A DNA stretch of 64,000 nt, taken from contig SFPL01000092.1 of assembly GCA_004551905.1 (NCBI GenBank), forward strand, positions 1,371-65,370, written 5' to 3'. This DNA is from Lentisphaeraceae bacterium (GTDB lineage Bacteria; Verrucomicrobiota; Kiritimatiellia; RFP12; UBA1067). The position numbers were made by a program, and so were the translations under genes. Under the pieces are notes generated by a model. It worked only from the letters and a program-made list of their open reading frames with translations, had not been told where the DNA came from and made no database searches. Below are positions 42,526-57,422 of this stretch, piece by piece; the stretch's first letter is position 1, and each line of letters begins with the position of its first letter.

Positions 42526-43272
42526 GTGAAGAAGACGTTTCAAGACTACGGGAAGGAATGGCTCGACACATTCGTCGTCGCTATCTCCGTGGCGATGGCA
42601 TTCCGCGCCTACTTCTACGAGCCGTTCAAGATTCCGACCGGCTCGATGCAGGAGACGCTCTGGGGCCACCACACCCAGGCCGGTGCGGAGAAGGGGGCAT
42701 GGGACATGTTTCCCCTCTCGGTGCTCAAGTGGGCCGTGACCGGCGAGCGGGTGGTGGACTGGAAGTCCCCGGCCACCGGTACCGTCCGCTGCCAGCCGCG
42801 AGGCGACGGCTTCGCCACCGTCAAGGTCGGCACTTGCGACCAGAGCTGGTCGCTGCCGACCGACGCCTGCCGCGAGCTGAACGGCAAGTTCGTGACCAAA
42901 GGCGAAACGCTCTGGAAGGGGTCGATCACCACCGGTGACTTCATCTTCGTCAACCGCTGGAAGTGGAACTTCTTCCAGCCGAAGGACGGAGACGTGATGA
43001 TCTTCTCCACTACTGGCATCAAGCAGCTTCCGCAGGGCACCCACTACATCAAGCGCATGAAGGCGCGGCCGGGCGAGACCTACGTCCTTGAGCATCCAGT
43101 GGAGGGACGGCCCGACGCGGTGACGATGGGGCCCGACGAGTACTTCGCCTGCGGCGACAACTTCAACAACTCCTTCGACAGCCGCTACTGGGGCACGGTG
43201 CCACGCGCGAATCTGCGCGGCGAAGGGGCGTTCGTATTCTGGCCGCTCACCGGCTGGAGGATCATCCGGTAG
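42526..43272 (+). CDS. lepB: Signal peptidase I
   Basis: GSMQETL (Ser), YIKRMKARPGE (Lys) and GDNFNNSFDSRYWG boxes. GTG start. Confidence 0.85.
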   Translation: MKKTFQDYGKEWLDTFVVAISVAMAFRAYFYEPFKIPTGSMQETLWGHHTQAGAEKGAWDMFPLSVLKWAVTGERVVDWKSPATGTVRCQPRGDGFATVKVGTCDQSWSLPTDACRELNGKFVTKGETLWKGSITTGDFIFVNRWKWNFFQPKDGDVMIFSTTGIKQLPQGTHYIKRMKARPGETYVLEHPVEGRPDAVTMGPDEYFACGDNFNNSFDSRYWGTVPRANLRGEGAFVFWPLTGWRIIR

Positions 43273-48331: not shown

Positions 48332-49327
48332 ATGCGCAAATACGACATGAACGACATTGAAAACGACATTCCGCAGAATGCCGTCAGCGTCTATGGTTCG
48401 GATTCGACGATGGACGAGTTTCCGATCCTCAAGGCATTCCAGGAATACATCAACGCCGAACAGGCCAAGGCGCGCAAGCGCATCACCGCGCTGGCGGTGT
48501 TCTTCGGCGTGCTGCTGATTGCAATCCTCGCCATCTTCATGACGCTGCTCGTGAAGTCCTACAACGACAATCAGCACCTCAACGACAGACTTGTCGATTT
48601 TATGCAGAAGGAACGCGAGCGATCCGACAAGGAGCACTCCGAGCGCGAGCGCGCCGCCGCCGAGGCCGCCGCAAGGCCATCGCGCGACAGCGCGGCGGTT
48701 ATAGAGCTGACCAAGAAGATCGAGACTCTCCAGGAGAAAATCTATAACACCCAGCGTAAGGCAGACGAAGCGGAGCGTGCTCTGGTCGAAAAAGAAAAGC
48801 TGATGGCCGAGAAGGACAAGCAGGCCGCCGAGGCGCTGAAAAAGGCGATTGAGGACGCGAAGCCGAAGGGACCAACTCCGGAGGAGCAGGAAATCGCCCG
48901 CCTTAAGTCCCTTCTCGCCGCCGAAAAGCGGAAACAGGCAGCCGCAGTCGAGAAGGAGCGCCGCCGACAGGCGGAGCTTGAGGAATACCGCCGCAAGCAC
49001 TATCCGCAGCACTATCAGCGCCAGACAACCCCTTCCCGCCCTTCCCGCACGCTGACAATCGGTAACCTCGACACCTCTGCACTGCCGCGTTATGACGAGG
49101 ATTACGACGATCTGCCGGACGAAGATACGGCGATCAGCTACTACGATGACGAGGACGAGGCCCCGGCCACCCCCGCCAAGAAGAAGTCAGTCTCCCCTTC
49201 CAAGCCTAAGCCCGCCGCAAAGGCGCCAGCCAAAACTGCGCCCAAAGCGGAACCAGAGGAGAAGTTCTCCATCCCCGTAGAGGTCAAGAAGAGCGACATC
49301 TCCGTCTGGGATATCCCGGAATACTAA
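48332..49327 (+). CDS. Hypothetical single-pass membrane coiled-coil protein with Pro/Ala/Lys-rich tail
   Basis: TM ALAVFFGVLLIAILAIFMTLLV, long E/K/A-rich helix, acidic DEDYDD stretch. ATG lies 7 nt after CATAAT. Confidence 0.5.
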   Translation: MRKYDMNDIENDIPQNAVSVYGSDSTMDEFPILKAFQEYINAEQAKARKRITALAVFFGVLLIAILAIFMTLLVKSYNDNQHLNDRLVDFMQKERERSDKEHSERERAAAEAAARPSRDSAAVIELTKKIETLQEKIYNTQRKADEAERALVEKEKLMAEKDKQAAEALKKAIEDAKPKGPTPEEQEIARLKSLLAAEKRKQAAAVEKERRRQAELEEYRRKHYPQHYQRQTTPSRPSRTLTIGNLDTSALPRYDEDYDDLPDEDTAISYYDDEDEAPATPAKKKSVSPSKPKPAAKAPAKTAPKAEPEEKFSIPVEVKKSDISVWDIPEY

Positions 49328-49368
49328 GGCGTCGCCAACCATCCCGGAGACTTGGGGATGCGACGCCT
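49327..49368. terminator. Long imperfect hairpin between convergent genes (possible bidirectional terminator)
   Basis: AGGCGTCGC...CATCCC-GGAGACTT-GGGGATG-CGACGCCT. No U-tract. Confidence 0.35.
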
Positions 49369-49391
49369 CGCCGATCTCATCCTCGCCGGTT

Positions 49392-50912
49392 TTAGCGGAA
49401 GGTGAAGACGGATCCGGGGAAGTGGGTCATCGTGGCCCACGGAGTATTGCCGTAGCCGCCCAAGTTGACGCGCCTGCCGTGCCAGCCGTTGTTGGTGTCT
49501 GGCTCTTCGGAATAGTCACTCCTCGGATCGCCGGCGTCGATGGCCGGGGACTGCCCCGCCACCTTCTTGACATAGTCACGAACCAACGCCCCGGTATTCT
49601 CGTCGAAGTAGCCGCAGCCGCCGCGCAGGTGGCAGTTGTAGTCAACGACCTGGCCAAATGTTGGCACGGGCTTGGACCAGCTCCAGCTCCAGTTCGTCGG
49701 CAGGGCGCGCGGCATCGTGGCCCCTTCTGGCGACTTGACCTGCGCCATCACCGTGTTCGTCGGAGTCACGAGAAGCGGATCCCCGTATATGCAGTGGGTG
49801 CCGATCTTAAGCGATCCCGCCGTCGTTTCGGAGACGCAGATCGTGCTGCCATCCTCCTCGGGAACGGCGAAGAGGCAGTAGTCCACGGTCGCCGTCGCGT
49901 CGGCCGCGACGCGCAGATCGGCCGCCGCCGTCGCGTTCACCTTGGCGAGGTTGCCGTAGAAGATGCAGTTCGTAACCGCCGTCGCGCCCCTCACGCAGTT
50001 AAGCCCGTGCGAAACGTTGTAGGCAAAGGTGCAGTTCTCGACCAGCGCCGTATCGGTGGCGTTGTCCAGTTTCACCGACAGGACACCCGAGCCGCCGCCG
50101 TAGTTGCCAACGAAGCTGCAACGCCGGAAAACGCTGCCGGAGCAGTTGCCGTGGACATCCGCGATGCCTTCCGCATAATGCCCGTAGAACGAGCATCCGT
50201 CGACCGTGGCGCGCGTGTTGTAGACGTGAAGCGCCGCCATGCTGGCGCGGGAGCTGTCGAAGTTGCGCATCATGTAGTTGGTGACGAACGAGCAGCGGTA
50301 GATGTCCGCGCCGCCGCCGAAGCTACCGACGTAGAGTCCGCCGCCAAAACCGCCGCTGCCGCCTTTGGAGTCGATGATGTTCCCCTCGAACCGGCAATCG
50401 ACAACCGTTGCCTTGGCACTGCCGCTGCCGTAGAGGCCCGCGCCGCCGCCGCCATACTTGTAGTTTTCGTTGGAGTTCCCCTGGCCGTCCCAGTTGCCGT
50501 GGCCTATCGTGCAGCCGTAGAAGACGCAGTTTGTGAGCGTCACATCGCCGGCGGAGGGTGTCTTCTTCAGCCCTCGATACTTACCACGAAGGAACTCGAT
50601 TGAGTCGATGGTGATGCTCTGGGTATTGCTGAAGTTGAAGGTGTCGAAGTTGTTCTTACCGTCAATCACCGACCTATACCCCTCTGGGCGCTCAGACAGC
50701 GCGCACTCAACGCCCGTGAAACCGCCGCGGATCACCACTGAGAATGTGAACTCCTTCGTCGGGATTGTCTCGGTCACGATGTTCGTGCCGGCGATCCAGA
50801 TCTCGTTCTTGAGCGTCGAAGCCGCCGCGAGCGCGTCGGGCCACGACGCGAAGGCGTCGGTCCAGCTCGTGCCGTCGTTCCTGCCGATTGCGCCCGGACG
50901 CACGTGAATCAC
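49392..50912 (-). CDS. Beta-helix (pectate-lyase-like) repeat protein, third segment of the interrupted giant surface-protein frame
   Basis: GTG start 7 codons after an in-frame TAG. No signal peptide. Module is paralogous to residues in the 1304-aa ORF (DGTSWTDAF...EIWIAGTN...DAGDPRSDYSEEP...NLGGYGNT). Confidence 0.55.
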   Translation of the reverse strand: MIHVRPGAIGRNDGTSWTDAFASWPDALAAASTLKNEIWIAGTNIVTETIPTKEFTFSVVIRGGFTGVECALSERPEGYRSVIDGKNNFDTFNFSNTQSITIDSIEFLRGKYRGLKKTPSAGDVTLTNCVFYGCTIGHGNWDGQGNSNENYKYGGGGAGLYGSGSAKATVVDCRFEGNIIDSKGGSGGFGGGLYVGSFGGGADIYRCSFVTNYMMRNFDSSRASMAALHVYNTRATVDGCSFYGHYAEGIADVHGNCSGSVFRRCSFVGNYGGGSGVLSVKLDNATDTALVENCTFAYNVSHGLNCVRGATAVTNCIFYGNLAKVNATAAADLRVAADATATVDYCLFAVPEEDGSTICVSETTAGSLKIGTHCIYGDPLLVTPTNTVMAQVKSPEGATMPRALPTNWSWSWSKPVPTFGQVVDYNCHLRGGCGYFDENTGALVRDYVKKVAGQSPAIDAGDPRSDYSEEPDTNNGWHGRRVNLGGYGNTPWATMTHFPGSVFTFR

Positions 50913-50933
50913 GTTGTCCGGACCCTTCTTGCC

Positions 50934-53900
50934 CTACCACGGCGGAAGCGTCCCCGAAACGATGGAACTCGCCGTCGCCGACTCGCTCATCTGGCCCGCG
51001 CCCTCCACCGCAACCTTCACCTGGATTGTGTCGCCGGGGACATAGTAGGCGGGGACCTGGAAGATCTTGGTCTGCCCGTTTATGAGACCGCCGAGCGTGC
51101 CGGAGACGTCCACCCAAGTCACGCCGCCGTCCGTAGAAATGTAAATCGTGCCGCGCGCGATGTAGGAGCCGCTGCCGCCCATTGTGAAGGAAATGGTCGG
51201 CATCGTGTAACCGTCAGGGTTGTCCCAGGCGACCGTTGGCGCGCCGACGACGGCAGGCGAGGCGGACGGCGTGCGCGACGCCTGCTCGGTGTTGCCGTAG
51301 CGGCCGAGGTTGACGCAGCCGCCGTTGGGCGCGCTCTCGCGCGAGAAGTCGCTCTCGGGATCGCCCGCGTCTATCGCCAGAGAGCGGACACCCGCCGCGG
51401 CATAGTGGATGTGGCCTTCGGAGTCGAAATAGCCCGCATCGGAAAGGAGGTGGCAATCGTTCGCCGCCGCGAAGAGCGGATCGCCGTAGACCATCGAGTC
51501 TCCGAACTTCGACGCGCCGTTGACGAACGAACAGGTCGCGCCAGTGTCGTCCGCGAGGAGCGTGTAGTCGATGTCGAACGCTGAGTTGGCGCTGTCAGCG
51601 AAGTCGACTTCGTTCCCGAAGAAGATCGAGTTGCGGACAACGATCTGGCCATTGACGCCCTTCACGCCCGCGCAGCCGCCAGCGGTGGCATTGGCGTTCG
51701 CCGTGAAGGTGCAGTTGGCGATCTCGGAGCGCCCCTCGAGCGTGTAATGCTCGATCATCACCGCCGCGCCGTTCGCGCCGTCCGTCTGGTTGCCGCGGAA
51801 GAGGCAGTTCTCGATTGTGTTCGGCGCGTTGCTGCCCGACGCGCGCACCGTGCCGTAAGTCGCGTCGCTGCCGATGTTGCCGATGAAGTCGCACTCCTTG
51901 AGTTCAACCGCCGAGTTGTTCGCGAAGATCGCGCTCGTCTTCACCTTCGACGAGGTCGCGAGCGTGTTACCGGCGAAAAGCGAGTTCTCGACCGAGACGC
52001 GCCGCGTGAGGTAGGAATAGATCGACGCCGCTCCGTCCGCCTCGTCCGTCGAGAAGTTGTTCTTGAAGACGCTGTTCTTCGCATAAAGCGCGCCCTGATC
52101 ATAAGGCGACTTGTCGAGGCCTTGCACATAAAGCGCGTTGCCGTTCTCCTCGAAGACGCAGTCGTCGATGAAGACGTCGCCGGCCCAGCCAGTCTTGGAG
52201 ACCGCCCTTGCCGGCGAGCCGCGGAAGTGAAGATGCTCGAAAAACACGTTGCAGCAGTCCCTGAAGACCACGGCGGAGAACTGGCCGTCGCCGTCGATAA
52301 TGGAGTATGCGCCATCCTCGCGTTCCTCGATCGTCGATTCCGTCCCCTTGAAGCCGCCGCGGAAAATCTTGTTGCCGTAGAATGTCTGCGTAACCGCCGC
52401 GGCAGAGAGCACGTTCGAGCCGGCGATCCAGATTTCGCTGTTGGCGTGCGAAGCGGCGGCGAGGTTAAGCGCCGTCGAGAAATCGACCGCGTCCGCCCAC
52501 GAGGTGCCGCCGTTCTCCGGCAGGCCGTCCGGCTTCACATAGATGGGCGTTCCGAGGCGGAAGTTCGCGCCCGCGACGCCGTGGTGTCTCCCGAGCCCCC
52601 TCGCCGCAACATAGCCGTTGCCGTGCTTCTGTGCAACCGTGCTGTAGTCCAGCGCGCTGCCGGCGGAATTGTTCGCGCCGTAGAAGAGCTCGTAGTCGAC
52701 GCCTTCCGTGAGGATGTTGCCTTCGTCGTCACGGACGACGACCGGCGGCCGCACCTGATCCTCTCCGAAATACGGATAGCACTTCTCGACTTCGATATTA
52801 AGGTCGGTGTCGGAGGTGATGGAGATGTTGTCGAAGAGCGAAAAGCAGTTGCCAAACGAGCCGACCGAGTTGTTAATAACCTTGAGCGTGTATATTCCGT
52901 CCTCTGCAACGGTGAAGTCGGTCTGCACCGTGTGCCATGACGTTCCGTAGATGCGCATTTCGTTGGTGACGGAGCAGAGCGACTGCGCGACGTTGTTCGA
53001 GTTGACAAGCTGCCAGGTTTGAATCGTGTGATCCGTCGCTGCCGCCGCATGCTCGAACGTCAGCGTGTAGTTGCCGGCGGGAATGGCGAGCCCTGCCTGG
53101 AAAAAGATATTGCCCTGATACGAGCTCAGATAATGGTATCCGCGCCGGTCGCTCGTCGTTGAATGAACACCCAGCTGGGCACGGTCATTAACCCGGTTCC
53201 AGCTCGCCGACATGAATGTCCTCCAAGCGGAGCCGTCATGGAAATTTCCAGCCCCCTCCTCAACGCCGGGGTCGGCGTTGAGGGCGCGCGTGACGTCGAT
53301 TTTCTTGAGCATTTGCAGTTTCGCCGCGACTGGCGCCTCGGCGGTGAAGTTGACGGTGAAGTTGTCGGCGGAGCGCGGCGCGCCGTCCGGCAGGCCGTGC
53401 CACTCGATCGCCTCCTCGCCAGCCACCGGCGTGTAGACGATCGACACCTTGTCGCCGACACTCACCCATTCGCTCGCGCCGCCGCCGTTGATGGAGAACG
53501 TGCCCTCACCATGCAGCGCGCGGAGGTCGATCAGCACCTCTACCTTGCCGCTCGTCGCGTTCCAGCGCATGTCGGACGAGTTGAACGCCTCCTCCGGCGC
53601 AACGCCTTCATAGCGCACCTTGTCCACCGCGGCGTTGTAGGCGATTTCCTGACTCGTGAGCGGACAGTCGTAGAGCCTGATCGAATAGAGCCGCCCCTCG
53701 AAGTTGTAGCGTGATTCGCTTTCGCCGCCGATCGAGGCCCGCGTAAAGGTGTAGATCCAGTCGATGCCGGCTTGCGACTTGGTGGTGGAGATGCCGGTGG
53801 TGCGCCTGACGCCGTTCTCGTAGAACAGCATCGGGGCGTCGCTCGCGGAGCTGGCGGCACCATAGACGACGGCAATGTCGCGGACGTTCGCGTCTGGATT

Positions 53901-54848
53901 GGTCATTCCCGTCAGGACGGCGCGGTTCGCGTTGTTCTGGTGATGGAACCAGAGCTGGTTCAGGGCGAAATACCAGACAACGCGGTTCCAGGCGTAGCCG
54001 GAGACAAACGGCATGCCGCGGCGCGCCTTGTCGCTGCGGTACTTGATCTCCATCGTGAGGTACTGGCCCGTCTTGCCCGCGGCGGCACCGGCAAAGCCAT
54101 GCGTCTGAAGGAACCCGCCGCCCCAGTCTGCGCGGTCTGTGAGCGTAAAATCGAGTCCGCCCTTGAGGTCCTTCCAAGTCGCGGCGGCAGGGTCGAATGT
54201 GCCAGTCCCGACATTGTCTATGGCGTCCCAGTGGTTCATCAGCCCGTGCTGGACATAGGCGGTCGCGGGCATTGCGGGAGCCGCCGGCGCGGCGTAGATT
54301 GCGAACGTGTTGGTGACGACGCCCCTGTACGCGCCAATGCCAGAAACAATCGCCTTGCCAGTTCCTACCGCGGCATTGTTCTCGTAGGAAACGGTGTAGT
54401 CGACGTCCTTCACCAGCAGCGCGGTGCCGGTGTGGTTGGAGACGACGACCGACGGCTCGAGCGCGGCGCCGGAGTAGAACTGGTTGGGAATCCGCGCGAC
54501 GGCGATGTCCGTCTCGTAAGGCCCTGCGATGAACGCCCCCGTGCCGACATTCTTGAAGAAGGTGTCGGTCACGAGATCCCAGAGCCCGATGACGCTGCCG
54601 CGGAGGACGGGAACGAAATCGCGGACAAGCACGCCGTCCTGCCAGATCTTGAACGAGTAGAGGGTGAGCTTTGACTTTGAGTTGCCGTTGTTGGTCGCGA
54701 AGATGTCGAGCTTGTTCGACCCGGTGTATGCGAGCGAGACCGTCTTCGTAACGGTGTTTCCGCCGAGGTTGAAGTGGCAGTTGTCCACAGCGTCGGTGCT
54801 GATGGAGATAAATCCGTCGACGCCGTTTTCGTACATCATCCCCAGCAC
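50934..54848 (-). CDS. Giant surface protein segment (jelly-roll remainder, LamG-like, Ig-like and beta-helix modules)
   Basis: 1304-aa ORF in the same frame as both neighbours. GRLYSIRLYDCPLTSQEI (LamG-like). Beta-helix module GGTSWADAV...EIWIAGSN...DAGDPESDFSRES...NLGRYGNT. Confidence 0.6.
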   Translation of the reverse strand: MLGMMYENGVDGFISISTDAVDNCHFNLGGNTVTKTVSLAYTGSNKLDIFATNNGNSKSKLTLYSFKIWQDGVLVRDFVPVLRGSVIGLWDLVTDTFFKNVGTGAFIAGPYETDIAVARIPNQFYSGAALEPSVVVSNHTGTALLVKDVDYTVSYENNAAVGTGKAIVSGIGAYRGVVTNTFAIYAAPAAPAMPATAYVQHGLMNHWDAIDNVGTGTFDPAAATWKDLKGGLDFTLTDRADWGGGFLQTHGFAGAAAGKTGQYLTMEIKYRSDKARRGMPFVSGYAWNRVVWYFALNQLWFHHQNNANRAVLTGMTNPDANVRDIAVVYGAASSASDAPMLFYENGVRRTTGISTTKSQAGIDWIYTFTRASIGGESESRYNFEGRLYSIRLYDCPLTSQEIAYNAAVDKVRYEGVAPEEAFNSSDMRWNATSGKVEVLIDLRALHGEGTFSINGGGASEWVSVGDKVSIVYTPVAGEEAIEWHGLPDGAPRSADNFTVNFTAEAPVAAKLQMLKKIDVTRALNADPGVEEGAGNFHDGSAWRTFMSASWNRVNDRAQLGVHSTTSDRRGYHYLSSYQGNIFFQAGLAIPAGNYTLTFEHAAAATDHTIQTWQLVNSNNVAQSLCSVTNEMRIYGTSWHTVQTDFTVAEDGIYTLKVINNSVGSFGNCFSLFDNISITSDTDLNIEVEKCYPYFGEDQVRPPVVVRDDEGNILTEGVDYELFYGANNSAGSALDYSTVAQKHGNGYVAARGLGRHHGVAGANFRLGTPIYVKPDGLPENGGTSWADAVDFSTALNLAAASHANSEIWIAGSNVLSAAAVTQTFYGNKIFRGGFKGTESTIEEREDGAYSIIDGDGQFSAVVFRDCCNVFFEHLHFRGSPARAVSKTGWAGDVFIDDCVFEENGNALYVQGLDKSPYDQGALYAKNSVFKNNFSTDEADGAASIYSYLTRRVSVENSLFAGNTLATSSKVKTSAIFANNSAVELKECDFIGNIGSDATYGTVRASGSNAPNTIENCLFRGNQTDGANGAAVMIEHYTLEGRSEIANCTFTANANATAGGCAGVKGVNGQIVVRNSIFFGNEVDFADSANSAFDIDYTLLADDTGATCSFVNGASKFGDSMVYGDPLFAAANDCHLLSDAGYFDSEGHIHYAAAGVRSLAIDAGDPESDFSRESAPNGGCVNLGRYGNTEQASRTPSASPAVVGAPTVAWDNPDGYTMPTISFTMGGSGSYIARGTIYISTDGGVTWVDVSGTLGGLINGQTKIFQVPAYYVPGDTIQVKVAVEGAGQMSESATASSIVSGTLPPW

Positions 54849-54869
54849 TTCCCCCGCGCCGCGGAAACT

Positions 54870-55907
54870 TTAGGTGTCGTTCTGAGACAGCTGGTAGGAG
54901 CTTGCCGTATTCCACGCCCCCGCGCCGAACCACGAGGTACCGTTCGCGCTGTTCGTGGTGTTGAAATGCATCTCGACGGCTGTCGTGGGACCAGGCACGA
55001 TTCCGGTGTCGATGTACTGCGTGCCGGTGGAGGTGATGGACTTGACGCGACGGTAGATGACGAAGGAGTTCGACGAGGACATGCCTTCAAGCGCGCTTCC
55101 GGCCTTGCCGGTCACGGTCACGGTGCACCGGTTGCCATCATAGGTATAGGCGACATCGAGCGGGGTCTCCACGGCCGAGGTTCCGCCCGGACCAAAAGTC
55201 CAGCTCGTGTCGTCCATATAGTTCGTGACCACGAAACCCGGCGCAGGCTGTTCGCCGAAAAGACTGACCTGGGAGGGGATCTTCAGCACCTTGATGTTAT
55301 ACGACGGCTCCTCGGTGAAGAGGAACTCGTCGCCCTCGGTATTCATGAACTTGCGCCACTGCTGATAGTTGCTGGTGGTGCAGGATGTAAGACCGTTCGT
55401 GTTCCAGGCAAGGCCGGCCGCAAGCTGGCTCGCGTTGTTGAACGGCGCAGTAGTCGGGCCCTTGCCGCCTGAACCGTTGCCGACGCGAAGGTCGATGCCG
55501 TAATAGCCGTCCGATTCAGGCGTGAAGCTGCCGGTCGGCACTTGGCTGAAGGCGGTGTTGTTGATCACTGTAACTTCGTTGCCGTCGAGATCGGTGATTC
55601 GGACCAGGCCGTTGTCATCGTAGTTCTTCACGAAGTAATAGGTGACGCCGCCCTTCATGAACATCAAACCCTTGTAGGCGTATGTCTGGTTGTCGCCCAT
55701 CGTATATGTCGTACCTTCGTAGGTGTAGCTGGAGGTGTGGGTCGAGGCCAGGAGCGCACCGGGCACGACAATGCCGCCGTCGCTTGGATCGTCAGTTGTA
55801 TTGAACGCCCCGGACAGGGCCTTCTGAAAAAGCCCTGGATCCGCGAACGCCGTCGCCGCGGCAAAAGCCGCTGCGAGACACACAAGACCAGACGCGAGTT
55901 TCTTCAT
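54870..55907 (-). CDS. Signal-peptide-bearing N-terminal segment of the giant surface protein (PA14-like domain plus first half of a jelly-roll domain)
   Basis: MKKLASGLVCLAAAFAAATAFA signal peptide. PA14-like YYFVKNYDDNGLVRIT...GYYGIDLRVGN. Ends at a TAA in the middle of the STGTQYIDTG... domain. gggag SD. Confidence 0.6.
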   Translation of the reverse strand: MKKLASGLVCLAAAFAAATAFADPGLFQKALSGAFNTTDDPSDGGIVVPGALLASTHTSSYTYEGTTYTMGDNQTYAYKGLMFMKGGVTYYFVKNYDDNGLVRITDLDGNEVTVINNTAFSQVPTGSFTPESDGYYGIDLRVGNGSGGKGPTTAPFNNASQLAAGLAWNTNGLTSCTTSNYQQWRKFMNTEGDEFLFTEEPSYNIKVLKIPSQVSLFGEQPAPGFVVTNYMDDTSWTFGPGGTSAVETPLDVAYTYDGNRCTVTVTGKAGSALEGMSSSNSFVIYRRVKSITSTGTQYIDTGIVPGPTTAVEMHFNTTNSANGTSWFGAGAWNTASSYQLSQNDT

Positions 55908-55969
55908 GGTGTTACTCCCTGAGTTATGTCATGAAAATAAAACAACATACTTTCAAACTTTACGGGTGA

Positions 55970-55978
55970 ATATTACCA
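55970..55978 (-). promoter_or_regulatory. Possible extended -10 (TGGTAATAT) of the giant surface-protein gene
   Basis: In an AT-rich 129-nt spacer. About 55-nt leader with gggag SD. Confidence 0.35.
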
Positions 55979-56036
55979 AATTTGCGGCAATTTGGCAACC
56001 CCCCACACAAAAATGACAGACGACATTCGGGAATTC

Positions 56037-57422
56037 TCAACGAATCGGAACCGCGGGCTTGGCGGCGGGATCGAAGAGCCGCTCCTGTCCGGTGGCGTCC
56101 ATCACGCAGCGCCAGAGGTCGCCTGCCAGGCTCAGCTTCTGGCGGTTGATGGTGGCGAGCGCAATGGGGACGAGCGTGTAGAGCTCTGGGGCGACGCTGC
56201 CGACGACGCAGTCGGTGCGTCCGGCCATTGCCGCGTGCACCGCGTTTCGGGCGAGCATGTAGCAGCGGATGGCGTCGGTGCCGCGCGCCGGGACCGACCG
56301 GATGGTGTAGCTCGGGTCGAAGTACTTGACGGTGTGGTCGAAGTTCTTCTGGCGGAAATGCTCGGTGATCCGCCGCTTGAGGTAGTCGCCAATGTCCTTC
56401 TTGAGCACGTTGCCGGAGGCGTCGCGCTCCTCGGCGCCGCTGAAGAAGCGCTGTCCGGCCCCTTCCGCGACTACGATCACAGCGTGGTCCTTGCCGTAGG
56501 AAAAACGCCGTTCGAGCGCGGCGAGAAGTCCGCTGGGACCGTCGATCTCAAAGTCGATCTCGGGGATGAGGCAGAAGTTGACGACGGGATTGGCCATCGA
56601 GGCATAGGCGGCGATGAACCCGGAGTCGCGTCCCATCAGCTTGACGAGGCCTATCCCGTGGTGGGCGCCGCGCGCCTCGATGTGGGCGTTGCGGATGACC
56701 GGCGTCGCCTCGGCGACGGCTGTCTCGAAGCCGAAGGAGCGTCCCACGAAGTGAAGGTCGTTGTCGATGGTCTTGGGGATGCCGACGACGGATATCGAGA
56801 GCATCCGCCGCAGCGCCTCGAGGGCGATGTCGTGGGCGCAGCGAAGCGAGCCGTCGCCGCCGATGCAAAAGAGGATGTTGATGTTCATCCGCTCGAGCGT
56901 GTCCACCACCACCTCGGTGGGCTGGTGCCCGCGAGAGGATCCGAGGATGGTGCCGCCGAGCTCGTGGATGGTGTCGACGGAGTCGACGTCTAGCGGTATC
57001 GGCGCATAGCCGCATTCTGGCGACAACCCGGCGTAGCCGTAGCGGATGCCGTAGATGGTGCGGATGCCGTAGTCGGCGGAGAGGATCTCGACGAGTCCCT
57101 TGATGACGTTGTTGAGGCCGGGGCAAAGGCCCCCGGCGGTGACGATTCCAACCCGTGTCCACGCCGGGTCGTGGAATATCATCTCATGCGGGCCGGCGCG
57201 CTCGAAGCTCGGCTTGTGACCGAGTCTGCTCTCCCACGCCTCGAGGAGCTCCATGTCCCCCGTTAGCAGCACACGGCGCCCCTCCTCAACAAAGTCGTGC
57301 CGTCTGATCGGCGAGGGAATCTTCGCCTCGCCGAGGGTCTTTACCTCGCAACTGTAGGTAATGCGGTCGGAGGCAATCATCTCGAGCAACGGCGCCGCGA
57401 TGTGGTTGGGATTCTCATTCAT
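56037..57422 (-). CDS. pfkA: 6-phosphofructokinase (long PFK family; GGDGS motif favours ATP dependence, PPi dependence not excluded)
   Basis: GIVTAGGLCPGLNNVI, CIGGDGSLR, GIPKTIDND and LMGRDSGFIA. Start moved to ATG 57422, 8 nt after TGCTATACT. Confidence 0.85.
   Translation of the reverse strand: MNENPNHIAAPLLEMIASDRITYSCEVKTLGEAKIPSPIRRHDFVEEGRRVLLTGDMELLEAWESRLGHKPSFERAGPHEMIFHDPAWTRVGIVTAGGLCPGLNNVIKGLVEILSADYGIRTIYGIRYGYAGLSPECGYAPIPLDVDSVDTIHELGGTILGSSRGHQPTEVVVDTLERMNINILFCIGGDGSLRCAHDIALEALRRMLSISVVGIPKTIDNDLHFVGRSFGFETAVAEATPVIRNAHIEARGAHHGIGLVKLMGRDSGFIAAYASMANPVVNFCLIPEIDFEIDGPSGLLAALERRFSYGKDHAVIVVAEGAGQRFFSGAEERDASGNVLKKDIGDYLKRRITEHFRQKNFDHTVKYFDPSYTIRSVPARGTDAIRCYMLARNAVHAAMAGRTDCVVGSVAPELYTLVPIALATINRQKLSLAGDLWRCVMDATGQERLFDPAAKPAVPIR

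Follow-up and report, generated by a model that had tools for sequence, protein, structure and literature searches.

An in-frame ochre codon inside a jelly-roll module of a large, probably disrupted gene from a Lentisphaeraceae bacterium

Two described systems come closest to the interrupted gene reported here, namely programmed stop-codon recoding and nonsense pseudogenes or truncated alleles. As in programmed recoding, an in-frame stop lies inside a conserved domain and the frame downstream of it is intact; however, the codon is TAA and not a Sec/Pyl codon, the stop is not conserved, and in the window, by which we mean the whole 64,000-nucleotide stretch of DNA that was analysed, neither an element nor a tRNA of the recoding kind was found. 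As in a nonsense pseudogene or truncated allele, the stop replaces a tyrosine codon that the relatives have kept, the rest of the frame is undamaged, the gene contains another nonsense change, and close relatives are full-length, the difference being that no frameshifts and no significant non-synonymous rise have appeared yet. We consider it very probable that recent nonsense mutations disrupted a giant surface-protein gene of a Kiritimatiellae strain and left a pseudogene or truncated allele, in which case the locus would be an ordinary disrupted gene, not a new coding mechanism.

The interrupted gene and its relatives

The plus-strand triplet TTA at 54870-54872 is a TAA (ochre) codon on the minus strand, and it closes a 345-codon ORF (54870..55907, minus) with the C-terminal end ...SYQLSQNDT. 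The reading frame is identical on either side of the TAA, with no shift, and past it resumes at once as SFRGAGEVLGMMYENG..., continuing for another 1311 codons up to 50934. This in-frame stop had been reported at 54870 by a first-pass annotation of the DNA, and its position as well as the peptides quoted on both flanks proved to be exact. A second in-frame stop, TAG at 50936..50934 (minus), which that annotation did not recognise as a further mutation of this kind, sits 3.9 kb downstream of the TAA in the same gene. The minus-strand interval 49392..55907 reads as one ancestral gene of about 2,170 codons (2171-2176), which the TAA and the TAG divide into stretches of 345, 1311, and 513 codons, here termed fragments A, B, and C.

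Fragment A (54870..55907, minus) opens with a typical signal peptide (MKKLASGLVCLAAAFAAATAFA) and further comprises an N-terminal region, which has no Pfam match and may be PA14-like, and the first third of a jelly-roll module; alone among the three pieces, it retains an export signal, and it alone is preceded by a Shine-Dalgarno-like site (GGGAG). Fragment B (50934..54869, minus) contains the remainder of the module, followed by a Laminin_G_3 match, which is a different domain downstream of the interrupted module, then by beta-rich regions and a first beta-helix-like region. Fragment B carries no signal peptide of its own, and gene callers place its start at ATG 54839 (1301 aa). Fragment C (49392..50933, minus), in the same frame and the C-terminal part of the ancestral gene, contains a right-handed beta-helix domain (Pfam Beta_helix), to which the opening sequence of the earlier region in fragment B is very similar, and is called as a separate 506-aa gene with the start GTG 50912. 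In the intact form, the order is signal peptide, N-terminal region, QYIDTG jelly-roll module, Laminin_G_3, further beta-rich regions, and Beta_helix. Such lectin and beta-helix domains behind a signal peptide suggest that the intact product may be secreted and act at the surface as a glycan-binding protein or an adhesin.

Five related loci, L003 to L007, were identified among species-representative genomes. The closest of these, L003, belongs to a Kiritimatiellae MAG (JAHBAE010000062.1) and shares 98.2% DNA identity with the window along the gene's first 4.97 kb. Its frame is uninterrupted over 2176-2189 codons and runs into what is the separate 506-aa beta-helix gene in the window. At the TAA position L003 carries TAC (Tyr), flanked by codons identical to those of the window, so that the TAA is derived from TAC via a C-to-A change on the coding strand, and TAC (Tyr) is likewise found at the TAG position. 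The remaining four loci, L004-L007, are found in 'RUG' assemblies of uncultured genomes. They are 60-78% identical, and their HSPs are stop-free across both junctions, with Tyr at the first and Tyr or Trp at the second; a further protein, P0061, also has Tyr at the first-stop position. Polarisation with the outgroups L004 and L007 places the origin of both stops in the window lineage, and neither is conserved in any of the five relatives. That both stops arose from Tyr codons is mildly unusual. A protein search with fragment A returned only six fragmentary or distant matches, none of which bore on TAA or TAC in other samples. Two exact-pattern scans of JGI metagenome contigs, one per junction and permissive at the third base of each codon, yielded 0 matches.

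The TAA is real, being present in three assemblies from different pipelines: besides the window itself, two further sequences carry it at 100% identity, one of 11.7 kb (11,668 bp) assembled by Logan from SRR9218181, the other a MEGAHIT contig from ENA (ERZ27309610; 14.1 kb, 14,139 bp read). It is conceivable in principle that the TAA stems from faulty sequencing or assembly, or that it represents a minority variant, while the true population carries TAC, given that only a single base is changed and that the window comes from an uncultured-genome-type assembly. The same base nevertheless recurs in all three assemblies, the matching stretches of 11.7 and 14.1 kb being 100% identical, and a mistake made by one assembler alone is thereby ruled out. 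Random error is also unlikely in view of the second, independent nonsense change that the gene contains; we hold this explanation to be highly improbable. The three assemblies perhaps derive from the same or related samples, and they thus exclude assembler error better than they prove fixation in the population.

One jelly-roll domain across the stop

The module interrupted by the TAA is a predicted ConA/LamG-like jelly roll of ~185-190 aa (54513..55064, minus) with the motif series QYIDTG ... LVRDFxP ... NxGTGxF. Placement of the module by tblastn (55064..54501) matched the interval 54513-55064 given in the first-pass annotation. The stop falls ~65 residues into the module, i.e., about one third in. 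For the searches, the two parts were joined into a 188-aa query with X at the stop position, which tblastn finds as a single copy in the window. Fifty-five proteins match this joined module at 27-38% identity, each of them covering 90-97% of the query and spanning the stop. In an alignment of 30 homologues, Q-Y-I-D-T, L..P, and D are invariant, and the G of STG, V-R-D-F, N, G, and the F of N.GTG.F are conserved at a level of at least 90%, with conserved motifs on both sides of the stop. The module consensus reads LEYIESTGTQYIDTG ... YSFKIY.N..LVRDFIPC ... GLYD.V...FY.NAGTG.F.AG. The motifs that the first-pass annotation had given for this type of module, a start xSTGTQYIDTG and an end with GtG.F, are hence real and correspond to conserved columns of this alignment.

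An HMM search of 1.84 billion cluster representatives, in which each match stands for a 50%-identity cluster, retrieved 33,771 proteins at E <= 1e-3, many of them with 4-15 tandem copies of the module. Among the matches listed, the best-scoring stretches each span profile positions ~6-199, indicating that the unit is ~190 aa long and that the stop is located inside one domain, not at a boundary. AlphaFold2 modelled the joined module as a single all-beta domain (mean pLDDT 78.7, pTM 0.80), in which the N- and C-terminal blocks are confident and the stop is placed in a low-confidence loop (residues 65-79). Both a profile search with the joined segment and a structure prediction of the read-through sequence had been proposed as checks in the first-pass annotation; the former gave matches that span the junction and the latter one all-beta domain with a pTM of 0.80. 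Its view that the TAA lies inside a single ~180-aa jelly-roll-type module is borne out by the homologues, the profile matches, the AlphaFold2 model, and the fold matches described below, all of which span the junction, and its argument against two independently evolved genes holds as well, as homologues span the stop and orthologues carry Tyr at the TAA position. As judged from these alignments and the model, the module is one indivisible concanavalin-A/LamG-like jelly-roll domain.

Consequences and possible readings of the two stops

According to the favoured reading, one transversion in the window lineage turned TAC into TAA at 54872..54870, and another turned TAC into TAG at 50936..50934. 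Ribosomes setting out from the true start ATG 55907 would then terminate after 345 residues, and the product would be a stub that carries the signal peptide and breaks off after one third of a jelly roll presumably unable to fold without its C-terminal strands. The downstream stretches of 1311 and 513 codons would be deprived of the export signal and of a good ribosome-binding site. The full-length protein would therefore probably no longer be made, and the locus would be a recently formed pseudogene or truncated allele. We infer loss of function from this arrangement, with no useful restart or readthrough.

A functional split of the gene might be considered instead, in which the pieces are translated separately via ATG 54839 or GTG 54848 and GTG 50912 into separate or re-associating polypeptides. 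Start codons are indeed available 7-10 codons past each stop with G-rich stretches before them, and gene callers in two public assemblies annotate genes of 345, 1301, and 506 aa. GGAG-type Shine-Dalgarno sites, however, precede many genes of the window including the true start at 55907, whereas the candidate restarts GTG 54848, ATG 54839, and GTG 50912 are preceded only by G-runs at poor spacing and by no GGAG-type site. The restart sequences, moreover, belong to the ancestral coding sequence and hardly differ from the intact gene of L003, which implies that nothing has been selected for restart, and no relative is divided in the same way. The domain content argues against a split as well. The first cut passes through the middle of the jelly roll and, judging from the model, would yield two non-foldable halves, so that a restart product at fragment B would open with two-thirds of a jelly roll and no signal peptide. 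Fragments B and C both lack a signal peptide, although their lectin and beta-helix domains follow one in the intact relative and presumably act outside the cell. Functional separation of the pieces is thus very unlikely in our view.

The comparison with L003 bears on the age of the disruption. Between the window and L003, 227 codons differ, 125 of them synonymously and 102 non-synonymously, from which omega was estimated by hand at roughly 0.26-0.3. The differences are distributed as a mosaic: codons 402 to 1327 show zero amino-acid differences, 148 codons differ within the last 513, and the DNA beyond the end of the gene does not align at all. In segment B, the lineage-specific N:S counts are 10:5 vs 9:17 (Fisher p = 0.06), and for all segments together p = 0.32, i.e., the window lineage has no significant excess of non-synonymous changes. 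No frameshifts or deletions were found in the disrupted gene. Decay has thus left no independent trace, and the stops must be recent, or the pieces must still be constrained; the lack of significant relaxation together with the lack of frameshifts points to recent disruptions.

The same observations could also be taken to mean that both codons are decoded. An ochre-type suppressor tRNA that inserts Tyr, supplied by a phage or by another part of the genome, or leaky termination might read both UAA and UAG, such that the full-length protein is still made, perhaps in reduced amounts or conditionally. Such suppression would agree with the replacement of Tyr at both stops, as an ochre suppressor would read UAA as well as UAG, with the perfectly intact downstream frames and the low omega (about 0.26-0.3), and with the lack of significantly relaxed selection in the window lineage. 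Of the 613 nonsense changes that the intact gene could undergo, on the other hand, 202 (about 33%) are at Tyr codons, and the chance that both stops replace Tyr is 0.04-0.11, depending on the transition bias, so that two Tyr changes can be explained without suppression. The genes of the window end with TGA in about 26 cases, TAG in 11, and TAA in 9, and a suppressor would face TAA and TAG as the terminators of about 20 other genes. No other convincingly interrupted gene was found by a window-wide scan for same-frame stops between coding-like stretches, and a tRNA scan of the window returned tRNA-Cys only and no suppressor tRNA. A stimulatory structure is not apparent either: the 120-nt region that surrounds and follows the stop is no more stably folded than shuffled sequences (z = -1.0), and the interval 49000-56500 has no Rfam match. 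Both stops are missing from every relative, which speaks against a conserved recoding site. Decoding of the stops therefore seems most improbable to us. Were it nevertheless to take place, which we hardly expect, the suppressor-read stops would amount to a nonsense-gated switch, with little surface protein made, or none unless the suppressor is there to read them.

Several other candidates were considered and rejected. Other in-frame stops in the window were judged, from composition, to be boundaries of adjacent same-frame genes or to lie in antisense frames with high GC3; for the TAG boundaries at 43270 and 46054, the flanking genes moreover match different Pfam families in L002. An alternative genetic code was dismissed in view of about 9 TAA and 11 TAG gene ends and of in-frame stops in one gene only. 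Selenocysteine or pyrrolysine insertion (Sec/Pyl) was rejected because the codon is TAA and stop usage is normal, and DGR-type mutagenesis because the changes are at C and not at A positions.

With disruption by nonsense mutations as the favoured reading, the three called genes of 345, 1301, and 506 aa should be annotated as one disrupted gene of ~2,170 codons, since the three pieces, if counted one by one, would add half-domains to protein-family counts and inflate them. The locus would be one more case in which a strain of a gut or rumen bacterium has lost a large and variable surface protein with lectin domains, which is common and expected. The family to which the interrupted module belongs may be the better by-product and perhaps of more use than the disrupted gene itself.

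The module family compared with known systems

Foldseek searches of the modelled module against the PDB retrieved C-reactive protein (TM 0.58) as well as PTX3, neurexin/laminin LNS domains, and a Vibrio sialidase lectin domain, with a probability of 1.00, yet with E-values of only ~1e-3 to 1e-2 and TM scores of 0.5-0.6. Better fold matches were found among predicted gut-phage proteins and viral entries described as ConA-like or LamG-like jellyrolls (TM 0.74-0.80 over 188-197 columns). No Pfam family matches the module at E <= 1 except for a spurious 13.6-bit Ig-like_KY match, and Laminin_G_3 is matched by 0 of the 31 aligned module members. Sequence-profile searches against NCBIfam, PHROGs, and the PDB provided no name for the module, with scattered PHROG matches in a few members, and tblastn of the module against a phage GenBank collection gave no match.

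Small single-module homologues are encoded in two phage-like surroundings. One (L008) is a prophage-like gene cluster, in which the homologue immediately follows a collagen-like protein and precedes the amidase and holin genes of the lysis cassette, and the other (L009) is a contig with phage terminase, portal, scaffold, tail-sheath, and tape-measure genes. Such settings would fit a receptor- or glycan-binding role of the module. The family as a whole is very large and unnamed, with >33,000 50%-identity clusters, and its members are often tandem and occur in phage tail regions.

In relation to known systems, the module model shares the ~190-residue beta-sandwich jelly-roll fold predicted for it with the ConA-like lectin/glucanase superfamily, but differs in having no sequence-level membership and in reaching PDB TM scores of only 0.5-0.6. 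It belongs to the unnamed QYIDTG...LVRDF...NxGTGxF family of (pro)phage tail-region and giant repeat proteins, with which it has the motifs, the ~190-aa length, and full-length profile matches in common, whereas here the module is present as a single copy in a 2,170-aa bacterial protein and is 27-38% identical to the small proteins.

Second in-frame stop and extent of the ancestral gene

The 1311-codon stretch is closed by a second in-frame stop, a TAG at 50934-50936 on the minus strand, which represents a Tyr-to-stop change, as the corresponding codon is TAC in L003, an intact relative of the giant gene from a Kiritimatiellae MAG, and the other relatives have a Tyr or Trp codon at this position. 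The downstream '506-aa beta-helix gene' (49392-50933, minus strand) thus belongs to that same ancestral gene of ~2,170 codons and forms its C-terminal part.

Mosaic divergence and copy number

Comparison of window 49392-55907 with L003 180-6707 revealed that divergence is mosaic along the giant gene. Codons 402-1327 show zero amino-acid differences, while the signal peptide and codons 1328-1650 hold clusters of changes. Of the last 513 codons, 148 differ, and the DNA 3' of the gene shows no alignment whatsoever between the window and L003. On sequence comparison, this pattern resembles the outcome of recombination or gene conversion between strains or between paralogues. In related genomes (L004, 3-5603 and 6001-10047; second HSPs in L005 from ~11056 and in L006 from ~8487), the giant gene is present as two or more tandem paralogues; in the window the gene is single-copy, flanked by a phosphofructokinase gene and a 331-aa gene. 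The ENA MEGAHIT contig k141_299314 (L002, from ERZ27309610) begins at window 55072, a break within fragment A immediately 5' of the interrupted module, which may reflect strain or paralogue variation of the gene's N-terminal part in that sample.

Family of the interrupted module and its phage-like settings

Judged by profile searches, the family of the interrupted module (54513-55064) is very large. The profile of its homologue alignment collected 33,771 members at E <= 1e-3 and, with the threshold tightened to E <= 1e-30, 10,600 (both 50%-identity cluster representatives), with up to 15 tandem copies per protein in proteins as long as 7,600 aa, and no match was found in the searched copies of Pfam, NCBIfam or PDB sequences. 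Small single-module homologues also occur in phage-like settings: P0012 (L008, 8001-8645) directly follows a collagen-like protein and precedes amidase and holin genes, while the contig of P0013 (L009, 8001-8702) also bears phage terminase, portal, scaffold, tail-sheath and tape-measure genes. Such surroundings would be compatible with the module binding a receptor or a glycan.
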